Of a stretch of 64,000 nt of DNA, positions 19,751 through 58,641 are shown piece after piece. The translations under genes were made by a program, and so were the position numbers. This stretch comes from a bacterium. Its GTDB lineage: Bacteria > Bdellovibrionota_C > UBA2361 > RFPC01. Each line of letters begins with the position of its first letter. Positions within the stretch are counted from its first letter, which is position 1. Location: contig JAUIBK010000016.1 in NCBI GenBank assembly GCA_030428205.1, forward strand, positions 11,454 to 75,453, in the 5' to 3' direction. The notes beneath the pieces were generated by a model, which had not been told where the DNA came from, did not search any database, and saw only the letters and a list, made by a program, of their open reading frames with translations.

Positions 19751-19811
19751 TAGTGGCAAGGGCAATCACTTCTTAGCCTTTTTGAGATAAACCTCAATGA
19801 GAAAAAGTGGC

Positions 19812-19844
19812 GGGGTGCTTCTTGTGTCAACAGGAAGCACCCCC
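19812..19844. terminator. Candidate bidirectional terminator hairpin between convergent genes
   Basis: ggggtgcttc-N13-gaagcacccc, a perfect 10-bp stem. There is a short T-run on the minus-strand side. Confidence 0.4.
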
Positions 19845-19872
19845 ACACCACTGTTACCTAAGAGAGAAGAAG

Positions 19873-20734: not shown

Positions 20735-20784
20735 CTCACCTGGCATCAAAAGTGGCATGCTCTCCACTGTTGATGCCAGGTGAG
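20735..20784. promoter_or_regulatory. Perfect 15-bp stem-loop in the 5' region of the 19873-20652 gene
   Basis: ctcacctggcatcaa-N20-ttgatgccaggtgag. The loop contains an inner gtgg/ccac stem. Confidence 0.4.
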
Positions 20785-21424
20785 TCTCATGAGCTAAAAC
20801 AATATGAAAGAAGTGATTGCACCTCGCTCAGAGGCTTTACTGCGGGTGAGGTGTTTGGGCTGTAAGAAGAGAATTCTGACAGGGGAGCAAAAAGCAGCTG
20901 AGTGAAGTGCAACAGGTGTGCATCTACTCTAGGAATAAGTTTTGGGAGTTAAAGAACGCTCCCCCCATCTCTTCATGTACGAAGATATGCTTAGTGTAGG
21001 ACAGCAGTAGGGGGCTACTCAAGTGTTCATGGGGGCAACGTACCCGTCTTGAGTAGGGAAATGGAGGGCACGTTCAAGTGCAAGGAGGAGCGGGGATGCT
21101 TCTCGTGGGCTGTTTTGGTGGTGGAGCTGGCCATGGTGGACAGGAGTAATAGAGCTTTAATATCAGTGGGTTAGATTGCCCTTTGTGCTGCTCTCTATGT
21201 TCTATCCAGAAATTGACTTCTTGGGGTGGACTTGCTACCTTTCGCACAAGAAAGTTTGAGTGATTAGAAGCACTTGGTTAGGTGCTTAGGGATAAGAGTT
21301 TTTTTAGAGTCTCTTGCTAGGGATTGTAAAAAAACTTCTGTGTACCTTCGCACCGTACCATACTTCTCGCTCGTTAACTTCTCACGTATTACATGTCATT
21401 TGTTGATCAATAAGGATTCATTCC

Positions 21425-21697
21425 ATGGCTTTAGAAGGCTACAAAACAAAACAAGAAATTATTGCCAAGTTTGGCAAAAGCGAAAACGATACAGCTTCTC
21501 CAGAAGTGCAGGTAGCACTTATTACCAAGCGTCTTGAAACACTTGCTACGCATTTTCAAAAGCACAAGCAAGACAAGCACTCTCGCCGCGGGCTCCTAGG
21601 GCTTGTGTCGCAACGTAAGCGTCTTCTCGGATACCTCCGGTCTGAAGATGTAACACGTTACCGCACACTTATCGGTGAGCTTGGTCTACGTAAGTAA
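21425..21697 (+). CDS. rpsO: 30S ribosomal protein S15
   Basis: 90 aa with the typical S15 sequence ...[20 protein letters not shown]... The gene is followed by pnp. Confidence 0.9.
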
Positions 21698-21909
21698 TCC
21701 TCTTGTCCCCAGTAGCGTTAGCTTGAACATTTCGTGTGCTGTGAGACAGACTGTTTTTTTCTGCACTGAGTTTTGGTGCCAGGAAGAGGAGTCTTTTTGT
21801 GCTCGTGAGGTTCACTCTCTAGCTGCATGTCATGGGGCGTTGCTGTATAGTTCAACCCAAAGTTTAAAGAAGAATAAATAGAACCTTAGATCGAATTAAG
21901 GAGTAGATA

Positions 21910-24121: not shown

Positions 24122-24196
24122 ATTGAATCGCAGAGGCGCTCAGAGGAACACAGAGGAGAGCGATAGAACATCCTCTGTGCGCCTCTGTGATTCAAT
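24122..24196. terminator. Long imperfect hairpin between the convergent pnp and cls genes
   Basis: attgaatcgcagaggcgc ... gcgcctctgtgattcaat 18-bp outer stem. Inner cacagagg/cctctgtg stem. Confidence 0.4.
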
Positions 24197-35568: not shown

Positions 35569-35633
35569 TCCGTTACTCCTTTCGCTGGAGAAAGCCCTCT
35601 TTTGTTTGCACCCATGCAAACAGTAAGCTCAAA

Positions 35634-35677
35634 GGGGCCCATGAGAGTTGTGTCTCAACACAAGTCTCATGGGCCCC
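35634..35677. promoter_or_regulatory. 19-bp stem-loop between the upstream gene and csrA. It may be a leader element or a terminator.
   Basis: ggggcccatgagagttgtg-tctcaa-cacaagtctcatgggcccc, with one mismatch. Confidence 0.4.
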
Positions 35678-35846
35678 TCACTCTCAAGGATGTAAAGTAA
35701 CAGATGCGTTACAGGAGTAGCTCTCAAATCGAGAGCGAAAGAAACCCTATACGCTTTTGTCCCCAGTGAGGGGAGTATCGAGGCGATTCAAATCTTAGTC
35801 AAGTTCGCAGGAATATAGATGGGGAGGTTGGAGTTCGTCGGGAGGG

Positions 35847-38181: not shown

Positions 38182-38343
38182 GAGGCGGAAGCGGATACCA
38201 AGAATAAGACCAAAACGAAGATATAGGTCAAGGCGGAGGCTGAGAAAAAGATAAAGAGCAAGGAGATCCTATTTCTCAGCCTCTATCTCAGTCTTCGTCT
38301 AGATCTTGGTTTTGGTCTTATTCTTGGCCTTGGTCTCCGCCTC
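38182..38343. repeat. Long imperfect palindrome of 6-bp tandem units, copy A. The same family is at 52864-53082.
   Basis: Arm GGCGGA AGCGGA TACCAA GAATAA GACCAA... pairs with TCTTGG TTTTGG TCTTAT TCTTGG CCTTGG TCTCCG, with a perfect 18-bp core. Confidence 0.6.
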
Positions 38344-48299: not shown

Positions 48300-48373
48300 T
48301 ATTCCGACAGAAAAGTTTTTTCACCTAACGGGGAGGGCCAATACAGTTGGCTAGTGCTCCGTCGGAAGAGATA

Positions 48374-48589
48374 TTACTGCTCTGCTGTTTTTTGTGCGTT
48401 TTCAAGGGCCTCTTGAATTTCACCTTCATCATCTGTTGGGAGAATCTCGCGTGAAATAACGTAGGAGCCGTTTGCCCAACTTCCCAGATCTTTAAGTCTG
48501 CACCGATCGCAGCAGAATGGGAAGGATGGAGACTCGCGCAAGGCAGGTTGTTTACACTCAGGGCAAGGGGGGAGGGACTTGGACGTCAC
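48374..48589 (-). CDS. yacG: Zinc-ribbon DNA gyrase inhibitor YacG-like protein
   Basis: CPECKQP...FCCDRCRLKDLGSW four-Cys ribbon. Confidence 0.6.
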   Translation of the reverse strand: MTSKSLPPCPECKQPALRESPSFPFCCDRCRLKDLGSWANGSYVISREILPTDDEGEIQEALENAQKTAEQ

Positions 48590-48868
48590 TTATTTCTCTT
48601 CGTACTTTCGGATACGTACTTTCTCAACACCAACGGCATCATGTGCGAGAAACTGAAGTTGTTGGAAGGTAGCATCGCGTTTAAGATATTCCTCGTCTTC
48701 ATCACTGCCCGGCTCAATGAAGAGCTCTTCGTGCTCGAAGTGGTAGGAGTTTGCTCGACGGAGGTGCTCGAGGAGAGCGAGTTGAAGCTTTTCGTCTAGG
48801 CTTTGAAGGAGCTTTTCCCAGAGTTCAGGTTGGTTTCCTTTTGCTGTTCCGCCCGCATCAGAAGACAT
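48590..48868 (-). CDS. Hypothetical small acidic protein
   Basis: The ORF abuts yacG. No recognisable domain. Confidence 0.35.
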   Translation of the reverse strand: MSSDAGGTAKGNQPELWEKLLQSLDEKLQLALLEHLRRANSYHFEHEELFIEPGSDEDEEYLKRDATFQQLQFLAHDAVGVEKVRIRKYEEK

Positions 48869-49076
48869 AATGCAACTCTTCTCCTTCTAAAAAATTCCTC
48901 TACCTCTATTATAGATCACAGCCTGTGATCCGTAAAAGGGATGAACTCAATATGTTTTCCCTTTCTTTCATTCTTAAGATGCACAAAACCCCTTTGTCGA
49001 TACATTCTGTTAGACAAAGGGGCTTTTATCAGAAATAAGCAGTCATTCGAGAGAATGCTTATTCTTATGAGAGCGA

Positions 49077-49364
49077 CTACATTGCGGCTTCTTGGCGTTG
49101 TGGAGTGGCGTCTCTGTTGGCTTGAAGTTTAAGGGCGTTGCGAAGGCTTGGCATGTCAAGATCGAGTGCTTCGCAGATAAAGCGGAAAGAGAGTGGGGCA
49201 TCCGTTGGTTCATCGTCCATGAGCCATAACTCAGCACCGTCACGGAGATCCCCGTCTCCTGTGAGGTAGTCAGTGATAGCGCGTTGGAGCACAGCTGCTA
49301 GGAGACGGCGCTCTGGAACTTGTGTGTTGCCAACAGGAACTTCTGCGTTTGACCAAAATTTCAT
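49077..49364 (-). CDS. Small hypothetical protein, paralogous to 42841-43209
   Basis: RRLLAAVLQRAITDYL...AELWL...SFRFICEALDLDMPSLRNAL shares the motif of 42841-43209. Confidence 0.4.
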   Translation of the reverse strand: MKFWSNAEVPVGNTQVPERRLLAAVLQRAITDYLTGDGDLRDGAELWLMDDEPTDAPLSFRFICEALDLDMPSLRNALKLQANRDATPQRQEAAM

Positions 49365-50052
49365 GATGATTACCCTTCAATAATGCTCAGAATAAAAATC
49401 TGTTAATTCAACAGAGAGTTTCATTTCTTCCTACCTTTTAGGGCGAGCAGCCCCGTGCAAGTTATAAGTGAGAAGCCGAAAAAGTCCCTCACCATCGTGA
49501 TTTACCCAACCACATGGCTTGCAAAAGATAGGTGATGTAAAAGAAACAACAGTTTAAGTATTTGTAACTCGTGCTCGAGTCAATCTGCGTGCTTTAGGAT
49601 GAAAATCACCGGCTTTTACTTTCAAGCCCAAACTAAAGGGTCTCGTGAAAAGCAAGCACACACAACAAACTACTGTGGAGATCAAATCATATGAGACCCA
49701 AGCAGTGAGCTGATGAAAAAAACCGAAAGGTGAACCCGAAAAGAGGTAAGTGTTTTCTTTTTACAGGCGGAGTTGTCTCGCCCCCAAAAAAAGAAAGCCC
49801 CAAAAAAAAAGAAAGCATGTCAGAAGTGACAAGCTTTCCCCAAAGACAAGCGAATACTACCGAACGGATATTCGGGAGTCAACGAAAAAATAACATTGCA
49901 CAAATAAAAAGTGCATTCAAAGAAAGTACTAATCAAACCCTCTATGAGGGGCTCACTAGCACCATCAATTGAAAAATAGAACAAAGGGTCAGTTCTTGCA
50001 AGAGGAAGACTCGATAAATATGCGATAGAATGAATCGATGAGCTTGTTAAGG

Positions 50053-52831: not shown

Positions 52832-52863
52832 ATCGTGAGCTCCCTAAAGTTTTTCACTGTCTA

Positions 52864-53082
52864 GGTCTTAGCCTTAGTCTTAGTCTTAGTCTATAATCTT
52901 GGTCTTGGCCTGATTCTTAGCGTTGGCCTCCGCCTATAAAAACTCCCACTTTCACCTCAGCATGCACGCGTACGGGAACGTCTACGTTAACGTTTCATTT
53001 TAAATGCGAGGATCAGGCTGATGCCAAGAATAGGACCAAGACCAAGATGTAGACTAAGGCTAAGACTAAGGCTAAGGCTGAG
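52864..53082. repeat. Long palindrome of 6-bp tandem units, copy B. The arms are separated by an 88-bp spacer.
   Basis: Left arm CTTAGC CTTAGT CTTAGT...TCTTGG TCTTGG. The right arm is its reverse complement (CCAAGA...CTAAGG CTAAGG). The spacer contains acgttaacgt, gcatgc and acgcgt palindromes. Confidence 0.6.
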
Positions 53083-53254
53083 GGGGGTAGGGGGTTATCT
53101 TTTGGGCGGGGGAGGGAACCTAAAGCTCCCAAGATACCCCGGTAAAAAATACCGGGATATCTTAGTTGCATCAGGAACAGGACAGGCAACCGTGCATCGC
53201 ACCTATGCATGGCACCAAACGTTCTGCAATTATTGGGGGTGAAAGGACTGTTGT

Positions 53255-53902
53255 TTATACCACCTGATCAACAACAATACTTCCGGATTGAGCAAGCACC
53301 TCTTGTGAAACTTGTTCCGATACTTCGGTTTCAACCTTGAGAGGTTCAAGGCCGAGATCGGCTCGTTTTTGTGATTCGTATGCTATGAGTTTTTCTTCGA
53401 TCAGAGATTTGGTTTCTTCAATCCCTGCTTGAACTCCTTCGATCTCAAAAGCTCCGATGCCTTCGAGGATATCAAATGCTTCGCCGTATCCTGTTCCTAT
53501 TCCACTACGGATGGTGGACATAAACGAATCTAGCAGCTCTTCGCCTTCAAGCTCGGGGTTCTGTTTTGCATACACATCAAAGAAGGCTGTAGCACCTTGC
53601 ACGATACGCTCAGCCGTTGCTTCGGGAGTATGTTGTTCAGGTTGTAGCGACTCAACTCCGTCTGGAACTTCCGATGCGAGAATTTCGTTTAGCTTTTGAA
53701 TGACTTGATCTGTTGTAATCGTCAGTGAAGTTGGAAGATCAAGCGGGGAAAAGGACACCTTAGCTGCTGGTTCTCGCTCAAACTTAAGAGCTGAGTCGAG
53801 CACGTATTTGTCAGCCTGGAGTTTTCCAGTTTCACTTGATACGTTGGTGAGGGATTTAGGAACGGTTGTTCCACTTTGGATGAGAGATTGGCTACCTTCC
53901 AT
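53255..53902 (-). CDS. Hypothetical acidic protein
   Basis: ORF with a Glu-rich C-terminal half. No recognisable domain. Confidence 0.4.
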   Translation of the reverse strand: MEGSQSLIQSGTTVPKSLTNVSSETGKLQADKYVLDSALKFEREPAAKVSFSPLDLPTSLTITTDQVIQKLNEILASEVPDGVESLQPEQHTPEATAERIVQGATAFFDVYAKQNPELEGEELLDSFMSTIRSGIGTGYGEAFDILEGIGAFEIEGVQAGIEETKSLIEEKLIAYESQKRADLGLEPLKVETEVSEQVSQEVLAQSGSIVVDQVV

Positions 53903-54098: not shown

Positions 54099-54905
54099 AT
54101 GGAGCTAGCCCGTGATTTACATGCAGACATATTGCCGAAGAAGGACCTAACCCGCATGGCATGTACTCACCTTGACTGTCATACATTTCGTGGTGCAAAC
54201 GCGCTGCTTGATACGTCCTCGTTTGTGTCTTTCAATCCCCATTGCTCACCAGGTAATCTGGTCATCGCTGGTGCTCGCGCCGTGAAACAGAGTATTGGTA
54301 GTCAGGTTGCTTGTAAGCTCTCGCTTGAACATTTTGTAGAAGGCATCCTCGACTATTTCTCCGGTAATTTTAGTGATGAAGATTTTGTTGAGGCTGAGCC
54401 AAGCCTTCGCGCTCTCGAAGCTGCGTTTAAACGTGCAAACAAGAGCGTATACTCTTTTGGCCACAGCCTTGCTGCTGGTGGGAGAATGGCTGCTGCCTTT
54501 ATCGGATTAGTTCTCGAAGAGGAAACAATTGCTTCTGGAAGGGTGGGAAACGGCTCAGCATATCTCTACCGTGCAGGTGAGCTTTTTCCTTTTTTTGATA
54601 GCGCTGATGAGGCTACCCAGGAACATCAGGAGGGTTATCTCGGAACGCAATCGCTTGTATCTGTCGAGCTTGCAAGTGTCGCTATTGAGCCAGGGGATGT
54701 GCTCTACGTTTTCTCGCAAGAGCTAAGTGAGAGCGAAGAGGCCGAACTTATATCCCTCTCTCAAGATATGGATTTTAATAGTCCGGGAAATCCTATCTCT
54801 GAAATTTGTCGTTTCCTCTTTGATTCACCCGATGATGTCGCCTTTGCCACGTTGACACGGGTAGGGCCGGAAACGATCTATCTCGATAATGTTGTTGGCG
54901 GATAA
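54099..54905 (+). CDS. PP2C-like Ser/Thr phosphatase fold protein, possibly degenerate
   Basis: SGRVGNGSAYLYRAGEL resembles the PP2C ANVGDSRAYLLRDGEL motif but lacks the metal-binding Asp residues. Confidence 0.4.
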   Translation: MELARDLHADILPKKDLTRMACTHLDCHTFRGANALLDTSSFVSFNPHCSPGNLVIAGARAVKQSIGSQVACKLSLEHFVEGILDYFSGNFSDEDFVEAEPSLRALEAAFKRANKSVYSFGHSLAAGGRMAAAFIGLVLEEETIASGRVGNGSAYLYRAGELFPFFDSADEATQEHQEGYLGTQSLVSVELASVAIEPGDVLYVFSQELSESEEAELISLSQDMDFNSPGNPISEICRFLFDSPDDVAFATLTRVGPETIYLDNVVGG

Positions 54906-54933
54906 TTTTGGGGCTCCGTTGTTCTTGTTGAGC

Positions 54934-54995
54934 TACCACTTTGATAGAGTTTTTGATCCTGTGAAAACAGGATCAAAAACTCTATCAAAGTGGTA
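54934..54995. repeat. Perfect palindrome with 28-bp arms and a 6-nt loop
   Basis: taccactttgatagagtttttgatcctg-tgaaaa-caggatcaaaaactctatcaaagtggta. No flanking T-tract. Confidence 0.7.
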
Positions 54996-55028
54996 AGACA
55001 AGTGTGCCTCCAATATCAACCGAGCTTC

Positions 55029-55139
55029 TTAGAAGTAGTCTTTATCCCCAACCATAAAGTAAACCACTGCAGCAATCAGGGCTGCGATGAGAACGAGGGT
55101 GACGTTGTCTGAGCTGTATTGATAGAGTTGTTCAATCAT
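55029..55139 (-). CDS. Candidate 36-aa small hydrophobic membrane protein (sORF)
   Basis: MIEQLYQYSSDNVTLVLIAALIAAVVYFMVGDKDYF. GGAGAAG RBS 6 nt upstream. Not in the ORF track because it is under 60 aa. Confidence 0.35.
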   Translation of the reverse strand: MIEQLYQYSSDNVTLVLIAALIAAVVYFMVGDKDYF

Positions 55140-55400
55140 AAGTTCTTCTCCGTTTGTGTATGTATATCTATATTATACACATATATACAGAGTATATGCA
55201 TATTATGTGTATGTTTTTCGTTAAGTAGCTGTTATTACAGGCGATAAGTTGATGGAGATTAGGTGGTGTCCAGGACTCGTAATTCTGTCCGTGAAAGACC
55301 TATGTTCCTTGTCTATTTTTCCGAGTAACTTCAGTAACAGCTGGTACAATGCTGCCAGTAGTAAGCTCATTTCGTTGTTTGTCCCAAGGAGATTCTTCGT

Positions 55401-55886
55401 ATGCCGTCTTTTGATGTTGTCTCAACTGTTGAATATCAAGAAGTTGTTAATGCTGTAGATCAGACGAGACGAGAGATAGGTACAAGATACGATTTTCGAG
55501 GTTCGAAGTCTTCAGTCGAGCTCAAAGACCATGAGATCATTCTCCTCTCTGAGGATGACATGAAGCTCAAAGCTGTAGTGGAGATTCTCAAGCAGAAGCT
55601 CGCTAAGCGGCAGGTAAGCCTTAAGTTGTGTGAGTTTCAAGATCCCAAAGCAGTTGGTGGAGACATGATCCGACAAGTAGTTCGTGTCAAAGACGGGCTC
55701 CAAGAAGAAGAGCTCAAAAAGCTAACGAAGATGATTAAACAAACGAAGATGAAGGTGCAACCGCAGATTCAAGGGGAGCAGGTGCGAGTTTCAGGAAAGA
55801 AACGCGACGTGCTTCAAGAAGTCATCTCTTACCTAAAATCAAACGCAACCGAGTTCGAGTTGCAGTTCGTCAATTTTAGAGACTAA
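55401..55886 (+). CDS. yajQ: YajQ-family (UPF0234) nucleotide-binding protein
   Basis: MPSFDVVSTVEYQEVVNAVDQTRREIGTRYDFRGS matches YajQ. Confidence 0.8.
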   Translation: MPSFDVVSTVEYQEVVNAVDQTRREIGTRYDFRGSKSSVELKDHEIILLSEDDMKLKAVVEILKQKLAKRQVSLKLCEFQDPKAVGGDMIRQVVRVKDGLQEEELKKLTKMIKQTKMKVQPQIQGEQVRVSGKKRDVLQEVISYLKSNATEFELQFVNFRD

Positions 55887-55935
55887 TTTTTTCTATTTTG
55901 TTGTTTTTTCGTTTTTTCAAAGAGGAGTTATACAC

Positions 55936-58641
55936 GTGGGAACAGAGCAGAAGAACGCCTTTGATGCATATGCAAAACTAGCTGGTGGTAAAATTGGAGA
56001 GGTAGAGTATGTCCGTTTGCATGCCCTCGAAGATGCTGGTGTTGCAAACCTCTCAAAACTTCCATTTTCTATCCGTGTGCTGCTTGAGTCTGTTCTTCGA
56101 AATTGTGATGGGTTTGTTTTTACTGAAGATCACGTCAAAGATCTTGCAGCCTGGAAGCCCCAAGGCGAGAGAAAAGAGACTCCGTATAAGCCTGCTCGTG
56201 TTGTGCTCCAGGACTTTACCGGGGTACCCGCCCTTGTTGATCTTGCTGCTATGCGTGATGCCATGAAGCGGCTTGGAGGTGACCCGAAAAAAATCAACCC
56301 TCTTGTACGTTGCGATCTTGTCATCGATCACTCGGTGCAAGTTGACCACTTTGCGCAGATTAATGCGCTCTCACAAAATGAAACAATCGAGTTTCAGCGT
56401 AATAAGGAGCGGTATGAGTTCTTGAAGTGGGGGCAGACCGCGTTTGAAAACTTCCGTGTTGTTCCACCATCAACTGGAATTGTGCACCAGGTAAACCTTG
56501 AGTACCTCTCTCAGTGTGTCTTTCACAATGAAAAGACGAATATGGTTTATCCTGATTCGTGTGTGGGAACTGATTCTCACACTCCAATGGTAAACGGAAT
56601 GGGCGTGGTTGCTTGGGGTGTTGGTGGTATTGAGGCTGAGGCTGTGATGCTCGATCAGCCAATTTACATGCTTGTTCCTGATGTCATAGGCGTAAAGCTT
56701 GTTGGAGAGCTTCCAGAGGGTACCACGGCAACAGACCTCGTGCTCCGCATTACAGAGAAGATGCGTGAAGTAGGCGTGGTTGGTAAGTTCGTTGAGTTTT
56801 TTGGTACAGGCCTTTCGTCACTACGTGTAGCAGACCGGGCTACGATCGGAAATATGGCACCAGAGCAGGGATCGACTGTTAGTTTCTTTCCGGTTGATGA
56901 TGCCACGATTGAGTTTTTACGTTCAACAGGACGTAGCGAAGAAACTGTTGAGCTTGCTGAGCGGTATTACAAAGAGCAGGGGCTCTTTCGTACGGCTAAA
57001 ACTCCTGATCCAGAGTACACGAAGGTGGTCGAACTTGATCTCTCAACTATTGAGCCAGCTGTTGCTGGGCCAAAGCGTCCTCAAGATCGCGTGCCTCTTT
57101 CTAAGCTTGGGCCAACGTACAACGATGTGCTGACAGCACCTGTGGGCCCTAAAGGGCTTGGGATTGATCCGTCTGAGCTAGACAAGAAAGCTACGATCGA
57201 AATTGATGGCGAAAGTGTTGAGATGGCACAAGGAAGTGTTGTCATTGCTGCCATTACTTCTTGTACGAATACAAGTAACCCCTCGGTGATGATTGCCGCT
57301 GGTCTTGTAGCCAAAAAAGCGGTCGAGAAAGGGTTAGCTGTTAAACCGTTTGTAAAAACTTCGCTTGCGCCAGGCTCAAGGGTGGTGACTGAGTACCTGA
57401 CCAAATCTGGCCTATTGCCGTACCTTGAAAAGCTCGGCTTTCATGTTGTGGGATACGGATGTACGACCTGTATTGGAAACTCTGGCCCACTTCCTGAAGC
57501 CGTGCACAACGGTATTGCAGATAATGATCTCGTTGTGTCAGCTGTTCTCTCAGGCAACCGTAACTTTGAGGGGCGAGTGCATGCGCTGACAAGAACAAAT
57601 TACCTTGCTTCTCCTCCACTTGTTGTGGCTTTTGCGTTGGCAGGATCAACGGCAATGGATATCACCACTGATGCTATTGGTGTTGATGGTGAGGGCAATG
57701 ATGTCTTTCTTAAGGATATCTGGCCTACATCGAAAGAGGTAAATGATGCAGTGACCTCTTTTGTCACCCGTGAGATGTTCCAAGAACGTTATGCAGAAGT
57801 TTTTCAAGGCTCTGATGCTTGGAGAGAGATTGAAGCTGGAGCAGGGGAGTTGTACGACTGGCAAGAGAGTTCGACATACATTCAGTGCCCACCGTTCTTT
57901 GATGCTGTGACGAAGGAAGAAGCCTCTATCTCTCCAATCAACGGTGCGCGAGCTCTCGCGGTTTTTCGGGACTCGGTAACAACGGATCATATCTCTCCTG
58001 CTGGTGGAATTGCGAAAGATTCACCTGCGGCCAAGTATCTTACGAGTAATGGTGTCAAGCCTGTTGATTTCAATTCCTACGGATCACGACGTGGAAATGA
58101 CCGTGTGATGGTCCGGGGAACGTTTGCGAATATTCGCATTAAGAACCAGCTTGTTCCAGGCTCTGAAGGAAACATAACTTTGCATCATCCTAGTGGAGAG
58201 CAGATGACGTTCTTTGAGGCAGCAGAGAAATACCAATCTGAGGGTACGCCTCTTATGATTCTTGCTGGAAAAGAGTATGGGTCAGGCTCGTCGAGAGATT
58301 GGGCTGCGAAGGGGCCTTTCCTCCAAGGGGTGAAGGCTGTTATCGCCGAGAGCTATGAACGTATTCACCGCAGTAACTTAATTGGTATGGGGATTCTCCC
58401 ACTTCAATTTAAGGATGGAGAATCTGCAGAATCTCTCAGGCTCAAGGGTGATGAGACGTTCGACTTTGCTATCTCTAATAATATGACCCCAGGAGAGGAG
58501 GTCGTAGTCACAGCAACTTCCCCCGATGGAAGTAAGCAAGAGATTACGGCTTTGAGTAGAATCGATACTCCAGTTGAAGTGCAGTATTACCGCGATGGTG
58601 GTATTCTTTGTACGGTGCTTAAAAAGCTAGCGACTCAGTAG
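55936..58641 (+). CDS. acnA: Aconitate hydratase A
   Basis: VLLESVLRNCDGF and the full Fe-S aconitase domains. GTG start. Confidence 0.9.
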   Translation: MGTEQKNAFDAYAKLAGGKIGEVEYVRLHALEDAGVANLSKLPFSIRVLLESVLRNCDGFVFTEDHVKDLAAWKPQGERKETPYKPARVVLQDFTGVPALVDLAAMRDAMKRLGGDPKKINPLVRCDLVIDHSVQVDHFAQINALSQNETIEFQRNKERYEFLKWGQTAFENFRVVPPSTGIVHQVNLEYLSQCVFHNEKTNMVYPDSCVGTDSHTPMVNGMGVVAWGVGGIEAEAVMLDQPIYMLVPDVIGVKLVGELPEGTTATDLVLRITEKMREVGVVGKFVEFFGTGLSSLRVADRATIGNMAPEQGSTVSFFPVDDATIEFLRSTGRSEETVELAERYYKEQGLFRTAKTPDPEYTKVVELDLSTIEPAVAGPKRPQDRVPLSKLGPTYNDVLTAPVGPKGLGIDPSELDKKATIEIDGESVEMAQGSVVIAAITSCTNTSNPSVMIAAGLVAKKAVEKGLAVKPFVKTSLAPGSRVVTEYLTKSGLLPYLEKLGFHVVGYGCTTCIGNSGPLPEAVHNGIADNDLVVSAVLSGNRNFEGRVHALTRTNYLASPPLVVAFALAGSTAMDITTDAIGVDGEGNDVFLKDIWPTSKEVNDAVTSFVTREMFQERYAEVFQGSDAWREIEAGAGELYDWQESSTYIQCPPFFDAVTKEEASISPINGARALAVFRDSVTTDHISPAGGIAKDSPAAKYLTSNGVKPVDFNSYGSRRGNDRVMVRGTFANIRIKNQLVPGSEGNITLHHPSGEQMTFFEAAEKYQSEGTPLMILAGKEYGSGSSRDWAAKGPFLQGVKAVIAESYERIHRSNLIGMGILPLQFKDGESAESLRLKGDETFDFAISNNMTPGEEVVVTATSPDGSKQEITALSRIDTPVEVQYYRDGGILCTVLKKLATQ

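Follow-up and report, generated by a model that had tools for sequence, protein, structure and literature searches.

The window, that is, the whole 64-kb stretch of DNA that was analysed, comes from an uncultured Bdellovibrionota genome. The palindrome studied here lies in a 495-nt spacer within the local gene order sufS-like, DUF5610 (minus strand), PP2C-like (plus strand), spacer, yajQ (plus strand), aconitase, and NUDIX. The features of the spacer and its two bordering genes are as follows.

54099–54905, plus strand: PP2C-like gene, encoding 268 aa
54923–55003, no strand assigned: extended stem, with five to six pairs (CTTGT/ACAAG) added to the palindrome past an asymmetric internal loop
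54934–54995, no strand assigned: palindrome with 29-bp arms and a 4-nt loop, the proposed bidirectional transcript-end hairpin
55029–55139, minus strand: 36-codon ORF (hereafter sORF), probably encoding a small single-pass membrane protein
55145–55151, minus strand: Shine-Dalgarno (SD) sequence GGAGAAG, 5 nt ahead of the sORF ATG
55150–55215, no strand assigned: AT-rich purine/pyrimidine-alternating tract with repeated TGTGTAT/ATACACA motifs, the proposed promoter region
55401–55886, plus strand: yajQ (DUF520), which directly follows the PP2C-like gene in relatives

The PP2C-like protein matches Pfam PF13672 with E = 2.6e-4, which is below the curated cut-off, and has 123 homologues, mostly from Bdellovibrionota/Oligoflexia metagenome-assembled genomes (MAGs; the named ones are Bdellovibrionales, Oligoflexia, and Bdellovibrionota).

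Structure and copy number of the palindrome

The palindrome consists of 62 bases, TACCACTTTGATAGAGTTTTTGATCCTGT-GAAA-ACAGGATCAAAAACTCTATCAAAGTGGTA, with no mismatches and no G-U pairs, and the GC content of its stem is approximately 38%. An earlier note on this DNA had assigned it 28-bp arms and a 6-nt loop without a mismatch; the coordinates and the perfection were reproduced, but the outermost T and A of the 6-nt loop pair as well, which lengthens the arms to 29 bp and leaves 4 nt in the loop. The loop reads GAAA on the plus strand and UUUC on the minus strand. The folding energies were −47.4 kcal/mol for the plus-strand RNA and −46.0 kcal/mol for the minus-strand RNA, and a stem-loop is possible in both; for the extended stem, the values were −52.0 and −50.3 kcal/mol, respectively. 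The palindrome lies 28 nt from the stop codon of the PP2C-like gene and 33 nt from that of the sORF, the latter distance having been put at about 35 nt previously. The sequences flanking the stem are AGACAAGTGT on the plus strand and GCTCAACAAG on the minus strand. As the earlier note had remarked, there is no T-run after the stem on either strand, and a terminator scan made no call. Because this U-tract test failed, the palindrome is not a canonical intrinsic terminator.

Within the 64-kb window, the palindrome arm was found only at its own two sites when up to three mismatches were tolerated, and 100 shuffles gave no matches even at that tolerance. A dispersed repeat, for which a search with the arm had been suggested, was rejected since the window contains no other copy of the arm and an exact-match scan of viral contigs found none. 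The 495-nt spacer had no match in phage and plasmid records by blastn. No Rfam family passed the gathering threshold anywhere in the window, and relaxed E-values brought up only miRNA-precursor models, far below their thresholds, because of the generic hairpin shape. A tRNA and tmRNA scan found neither.

The palindrome sequence is identical in two Logan contigs, L001 and L002, which derive from different sequencing runs. Three independent assemblies (the window, L001, and L002) therefore agree, and an assembly artefact was rejected as the origin of the palindrome. The near relatives that carry the palindrome have only 100% identical copies, with no compensatory variation among them. Both contigs are 100% identical to the window from approximately 54760 to 56060 (1.3 kb), and positions 54690–54760 diverge by approximately 10% from positions 1–70 of the two contigs, mostly at synonymous-looking positions. 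This pattern suggests that recombination between strains has produced a mosaic whose breakpoint falls within the PP2C-like gene.

The 36-codon ORF, its upstream tract, and the arm repeat

The sORF starts with ATG, encodes 36 aa (MIEQLYQYSSDNVTLVLIAALIAAVVYFMVGDKDYF), and has the previously described GGAGAAG sequence, which lies 5 nt upstream; the long genes of the window are preceded by comparable SDs. The claim that it encodes one transmembrane (TM) helix also agreed with our analysis, in which the 17-residue Kyte-Doolittle maximum was 2.79 and AlphaFold2 predicted one helix spanning residues 2–35, with a mean pLDDT of 87.5. The N-terminus is acidic and rich in aromatic residues, and the peptide finishes with a K-[DE]-x-[YF] end.

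Codon usage was scored with a table derived from the 37 long ORFs of the window. The sORF obtained +9.45 bits in frame versus −25.9 and −20.3 bits in the other two frames, and its per-codon score (+0.262 bits) was the highest among 198 small non-genic ATG ORFs (mean, −0.147; sd, 0.138; next best, 0.13). This comparison set comprised ORFs of 30 to 60 codons, excluding in-frame parts of long genes; 36-codon windows taken from real genes scored approximately 0.19 bits per codon. An SD together with a TM-like stretch is found in only two ORFs of the window, all frames considered, and 12 of 3000 shuffled spacers (0.4%) yielded such an ORF.

A HMMER search of 1.84 billion representative proteins matched the sORF peptide only to its own sequence, on the NCBI contig that also bears the identical PP2C-like protein, and to P0242, the latter being a 1714-aa junk repeat protein that was rejected as a homologue. 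Pfam, NCBIfam, and PADLOC returned nothing credible, and no toxin or small-protein family, for the peptide, and an exact-product look-up with the 36 aa found no called gene. Conservation of the peptide, to which the earlier note had looked for support, was not borne out by these searches, and the counterpart in a related contig described below is positional only. The proposal that the ORF is coding fared better: its codon usage, SD, predicted helix, and rarity in shuffled sequences suggest that the sORF is probably a real, fast-evolving, and previously undescribed small membrane protein gene.

The tract at 55150–55215 has the alternating, AT-rich composition previously reported, with a GC content of 26% and 83% alternating dinucleotide steps; the window mean is 45% (sd, 7%), and the tract is the window maximum. 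It contains the longest alternating run of the window (16 nt, 55174–55189), carries TGTGTATG twice on the plus strand, and carries TATGTGTAT on both strands. On the minus strand, TATAAT at 55177–55172 is located 32 nt ahead of the sORF ATG and is aligned to TACTAT in L072, a Logan contig with a related locus. The locus-wide maximum of alternation is also at the corresponding place in three relatives: just upstream of the small ORF in L072, within the 790-nt gap of L045, and upstream of yajQ in L046. A scan for sigma-70 consensus promoters found no site with at least 9 of 12 matches in the tract. From its sequence, the tract probably contains promoters, possibly divergent ones for the sORF and yajQ.

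Closer to yajQ, a non-coding block at 55291–55355 is kept in L046, whose YajQ is 86% identical (shared positions, GTGAAAGACCTATGT.CCTTG..TA.TTTTCCGAGTAACTTC...), and the TTCCTTG in this block could pair with the yajQ SD (CAAGGAG). A consensus fold of the yajQ leader from two sequences showed weak structure and no compensatory changes, and a metagenome scan with the conserved block gave no matches.

A segment of the palindrome arm, TTGATAGAGTTTTT (54941–54954), recurs as TTGATAGAGTTGTT at 55119–55132 with 13 of 14 matches, and the second site is the complement of sORF codons 2 to 6; extension by eye gives 16 of 19. A match of this length occurred in 1 of 500 dinucleotide shuffles of the flank (p ~0.002), a value to be read with the fact that the repeat was spotted post hoc. 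Pairing of the arm with the start region is predicted to yield a duplex of −18.3 kcal/mol that spans the UG of AUG through codon 7. The hairpin itself is so much more stable that a lasting alternative fold is improbable. The repeat could be left over from the way the hairpin arose, or it could make a contact that serves regulation, in the manner of type I toxin-antitoxin loci; a regulatory role seems to us very doubtful.

The junction in relatives and hairpins at other gene ends

We compared the gap between the PP2C-like gene and yajQ in related loci. It is 5 nt in L043, 10 nt in L065, 29 nt in L073, 66 nt in L044, 111 nt in L055, 128 nt in L054, 495 nt in the window, and 790 nt in L045. The six loci with short gaps (5–128 nt), which lack the minus-strand unit, showed no notable hairpin past the PP2C-like stop codon. 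Since only the window and L045 have a long gap, the spacer is a lineage-specific expansion of a tight junction. The relative closest by its PP2C-like protein, L040 (81%), ends inside the gene, and the contigs of P0003 and P0004 end at the stop codon; none of the three supplied sequence beyond it. A YajQ scan of genome contigs gave only distant relatives of at most 50% identity, mainly from Rokubacteria and Methylomirabilota, which are useless for synteny.

In L045, the minus strand at the equivalent place ends with a canonical terminator (stem 2371–2401 followed by T9). On the same strand, its 790-nt gap (region 2362–2700) contains an ATGTGTA-rich alternating tract and a 12-bp perfect palindrome (2440–2464) and has no TM sORF; the slot may here be occupied by a small RNA or by another kind of peptide unit. 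The spacer DNA of the window and that of L045 showed no significant similarity, with the best alignment (E = 0.16) in the AT tract. An 8-mer common to the hairpins of the two loci, ACAGGATC, was considered as a sign of homology and judged to be chance.

The PP2C-like protein of L072 is 60% identical to that of the window. A small gene was called on its minus strand at 2513–2620, 198 nt past the PP2C-like stop codon, with the same position and orientation as the sORF. This ORF has a GGAGGG SD and encodes 35 aa (MEFVFEFANRLDPLSVTTILLVIIVFSIIQFKEPY) that include a single TM stretch. Both this peptide and that of the window begin with an acidic N-terminus rich in aromatic residues and finish with K-[DE]-x-[YF]. 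The alternating AT-rich tract just upstream of it can be aligned with that of the window. A TM ORF of this kind is absent at that place from the other loci among approximately 30 related ones. BLASTP produced no alignment between the two peptides, and the L072 peptide matched only itself among the 1.84 billion representative proteins; the two have no detectable similarity, so the homology is positional only. The codon-usage test was uninformative for L072 because the table contained only 629 codons. To the right of the tract in L072 (2777–2866) is not yajQ but an ORF starting MSKHYKRVNVLIRPDQYDRVV that is cut by the contig end. The sORF and tract therefore travel with the 3′ side of the PP2C-like gene and not with yajQ. 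The palindrome itself was not present at the equivalent site of L072 or L045, and the equivalent region of L072 contained modest stems only and folded no better than shuffles.

Long hairpins are frequent at gene ends in the window. Of 10 convergent junctions between long genes, six are marked by a hairpin with an energy of −25 kcal/mol or lower, in most cases lacking a T-run. Nine hairpins have 11 or more pairs, and all but one of these nine lie between genes. No other hairpin of the window is as strong as the palindrome, and no other is perfect. Others are located at 19807–19848 (−35 kcal/mol, 4-nt loop), at 24122–24196 (−44.5 kcal/mol, 26-nt arms), immediately past 35282 (−40 kcal/mol), at 35633–35678 (21-bp arms, 4-nt loop), and below the gene at 53255 (−37 kcal/mol). 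The full palindrome sequence did not match any of the window's other hairpins. Relatives have the same habit of gene-end hairpins with unrelated sequences; in L048, a relative from a JGI metagenome, an 18-bp perfect hairpin lacking a U-tract comes right after the PP2C-like stop codon and is followed by four more long hairpins.

Several further repeats were observed. Among the five long hairpins whose loop is 4 nt, three (54958–54971, 35651–35660, and 19823–19832; loops GAAA, CTCA, and GTCA) have an apex of the form TGT-NNNA-ACA. A rough, post hoc estimate puts the chance of this at approximately 0.02, and the apex may be a common signature of the transcript-end hairpins of this genome. The five consecutive hairpins of L048 (3223–3470) are perfect or near-perfect, and two of them have a common GCC-ATCC-GGGC apex. 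In the window, two large, imperfect inverted repeats (52860–52935 with 53013–53085, and 38182–38238 with 38287–38343) have arms composed of hexamer-periodic arrays (GTCTTA/GTCTTG/GCCTTA). By our own estimate, the arms are related across the two loci with ~75 to 80% identity over ~75 nt; at both loci they terminate in ...TTGG(N)CTCCGCCT(N)TAAAAA, and they are oriented tail-to-tail at one locus and head-to-head at the other. By their sequences, they look like a dispersed family of hairpin-forming repeats at gene ends. Two stretches, 20740–21909 (1.17 kb) and 48300–50052 (1.75 kb), have no ORF of at least 110 aa and contain long hairpins (20735–20784, 21297–21336, 48985–49026, and 49811–49838). 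Rfam gave nothing for either stretch at the gathering threshold, and they may hold unannotated small genes or RNAs.

Interpretation of the palindrome

Given the position of the palindrome, its folding on both strands, the hairpin habit of the genome, and the match to published work, we consider it moderately probable that the palindrome is a bidirectional transcript-end hairpin between the PP2C-like gene and the sORF unit. The 495-nt spacer would then house, on its minus strand, a small transcription unit of its own, in which a promoter within the alternating tract gives rise to a short mRNA for the 36-residue single-pass membrane peptide; this mRNA would run toward the PP2C-like gene, head-on. 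The 29-bp hairpin, midway between the two stop codons, would form in both transcripts as their common 3′ end and act as a bidirectional hairpin-dependent terminator, as a 3′ barrier to exonucleases, or as both. It would also block transcription of the PP2C-like gene from entering the promoters of the sORF and of yajQ. The anatomy of the locus, the gene-like properties of the sORF, the similar hairpins at other gene ends, and the enlarged spacer were observed; that the sORF is transcribed, that transcripts end at the hairpin, and where the promoters lie is what we infer from them. The placement between convergent genes holds if the sORF is a gene, for which the coding evidence is good but indirect.

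Bidirectional terminators of convergent genes in Escherichia coli do not look like intrinsic terminators but depend on a stem-loop of the nascent RNA (Wang et al., bioRxiv 10.1101/2022.10.23.513370), and they have been studied by SEnd-seq (Ju et al. 2019, as cited in bioRxiv 10.1101/2022.10.23.513370). The palindrome resembles them in lying between convergent stop codons, in forming a stem-loop on both strands, and in its non-canonical look, and differs in that it is known from sequence alone, is the most stable stem of its window, and belongs to an uncultured Bdellovibrionota MAG. REP hairpins act as terminators in 3′-UTRs and as stabilisers that protect against decay (bioRxiv 10.64898/2026.03.23.713779). 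Like them, the palindrome is extragenic, lacks a U-tract, and is positioned at gene 3′ ends, including between convergent genes, and its proposed dual role, termination plus protection from decay, is the same. By contrast, REP elements form dispersed families with a common sequence, whereas the palindrome is single-copy in 64 kb; this single copy and the lack of a target-site duplication indicate that it is not a repeat of the REP/MITE type. With the canonical Rho-independent terminator it shares a hairpin within approximately 30 nt of a stop codon and a 4-nt loop that fits the 3- to 8-nt range, but it has no U-tract on either strand and a 29-bp stem of approximately 38% GC. Such a stem exceeds the usual length in intrinsic terminators. 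The closest resemblance is to the hairpin-only terminators without a U-tract that have been described for some lineages. The argument that the palindrome is too long and perfect for a terminator is weakened by the many long, mostly U-less gene-end hairpins of this genome. The 29 wobble-free Watson-Crick pairs nevertheless exceed the needs of termination, and perfect symmetry is unexpected from selection on RNA structure alone; the palindrome may have arisen recently, for instance by template-switch correction, or may act at the DNA level.

Small bacterial membrane proteins of 30–50 aa include AcrZ, CydX, and KdpF. The sORF peptide is similar to these in its size, predicted single TM helix, and own SD. 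However, it is not located beside a partner operon of a known kind, has no family match, and is an orphan apart from one positional counterpart. Type I toxin-antitoxin loci such as par/Fst of pAD1 consist of convergent RNAs with a common terminator. In the window, the small hydrophobic single-TM peptide (<60 aa), the convergent transcript, the common hairpin, and the start-region repeat are like such loci, whereas the acidic peptide and the lack of a family match and of an identified antitoxin RNA gene are unlike them; of a possible antisense or overlapping RNA, only the convergent 3′ end of the PP2C-like gene and the 13/14 arm repeat at the start codon region were seen.

Three other explanations were considered. 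If the sORF were non-functional or unexpressed, the hairpin could be a one-way terminator and 3′ stabiliser of the PP2C-like mRNA, insulating a separately regulated yajQ–aconitase promoter region that replaced the ancestral operon junction. Consistent with this, only the plus strand has a GNRA tetraloop (GAAA), yajQ has its own conserved upstream block at 55291–55355 that is kept in L046, the sORF has no homologue in 1.84 billion representative proteins, and L045 retains a tract and a long gap without a TM ORF. This explanation appears rather unlikely to us, as the codon usage of the sORF is gene-like (top of 198 small ORFs), the combination of an SD and a TM stretch is rare by chance, and L072 has a counterpart at the same place. 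A DNA-level role or origin, in which the palindrome is a protein-binding or cruciform site, the remnant or hairpin end of a mobile element, or a quasi-palindrome perfected by template switching without any RNA function, would account for the perfect Watson-Crick symmetry over 29 bp without a G-U pair and for the missing palindrome at the same position in L072 and L045; the 1.3 kb that is identical between strains with an approximately 10% divergent flank suggests recent exchange. We nevertheless regard it as improbable. The palindrome is unique in 64 kb, with nothing found by exact matching in viral contigs or by blastn in phage and plasmid records; it is not flanked by a target-site duplication or terminal repeats; there is no adjacent transposase, integrase, or regulator gene; and an RNA hairpin fits both the 4-nt centre, which is not palindromic, and the location between two stop codons. 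Two readings offered by the earlier note found no support: a protein-binding operator, because the site lies past two convergent stop codons rather than at a promoter and no regulator gene is adjacent, and a mobile-element footprint, because there is a single copy in 64 kb with neither flanking direct repeats nor a viral, phage, or plasmid match. In addition, 29-bp half-sites far exceed operator half-sites in length.

The remaining explanation is a type-I-toxin-like or fold-back-controlled module, in which the start of a membrane-damaging peptide is masked by the 5′ arm of the hairpin, either in cis or via the 3′ UTR of the convergent PP2C-like gene, with the complementary 3′ hairpins providing a double-stranded RNA target. 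The arm at 54941–54954 repeats at sORF codons 2 to 6 (13/14; 1 of 500 shuffles as long), the predicted −18.3 kcal/mol duplex extends over the start codon, the peptide is small and has one predicted TM helix, and the unit is a lineage-specific addition within an operon junction. Several observations make such a module a poor prospect, however: the perfect partner of the arm (−46 kcal/mol) should out-compete the −18 kcal/mol alternative, no promoter or terminator of a separate antitoxin RNA is visible, no toxin family was matched in Pfam, NCBIfam, or PADLOC, and the peptide is acidic. Most type I toxins are, to our knowledge, not acidic. The unit is also single-copy in the window, and the repeat was noticed post hoc, with no analogous repeat seen in L072. 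In its specific form, namely, arms that mask the start codon of a toxic 36-aa peptide in a new, family-less type-I-toxin-like module at a Bdellovibrionota operon junction, the idea is highly improbable; the masking strand in that module can be the sORF mRNA's own 3′ end or the 3′ UTR of the convergent PP2C-like gene. Of the earlier readings, the one that held up is a gene for a small membrane peptide followed by a structured 3′ element, which is supported by codon usage, the SD, the helix, chance rarity, and the L072 counterpart; its toxin-like variant found no family match.

Read as a bidirectional transcript end, the arrangement of a convergent-gene hairpin and a small membrane-protein gene is ordinary, in an unusually clean form. 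Its value is mainly for annotation: a small membrane protein gene of an unannotated type, probably real, is present in an uncultured Bdellovibrionota genome, and the long hairpins without a U-tract at convergent gene ends in this genome escape standard terminator finders. The locus would gain in importance only if the peptide turned out to be toxic or the arm's match to the start codon region turned out to be regulatory. It also suggests that a very small convergent unit, equipped with a putative promoter tract and terminator of its own, can come to separate two genes, here a PP2C-like gene and yajQ, that otherwise form a tight junction.
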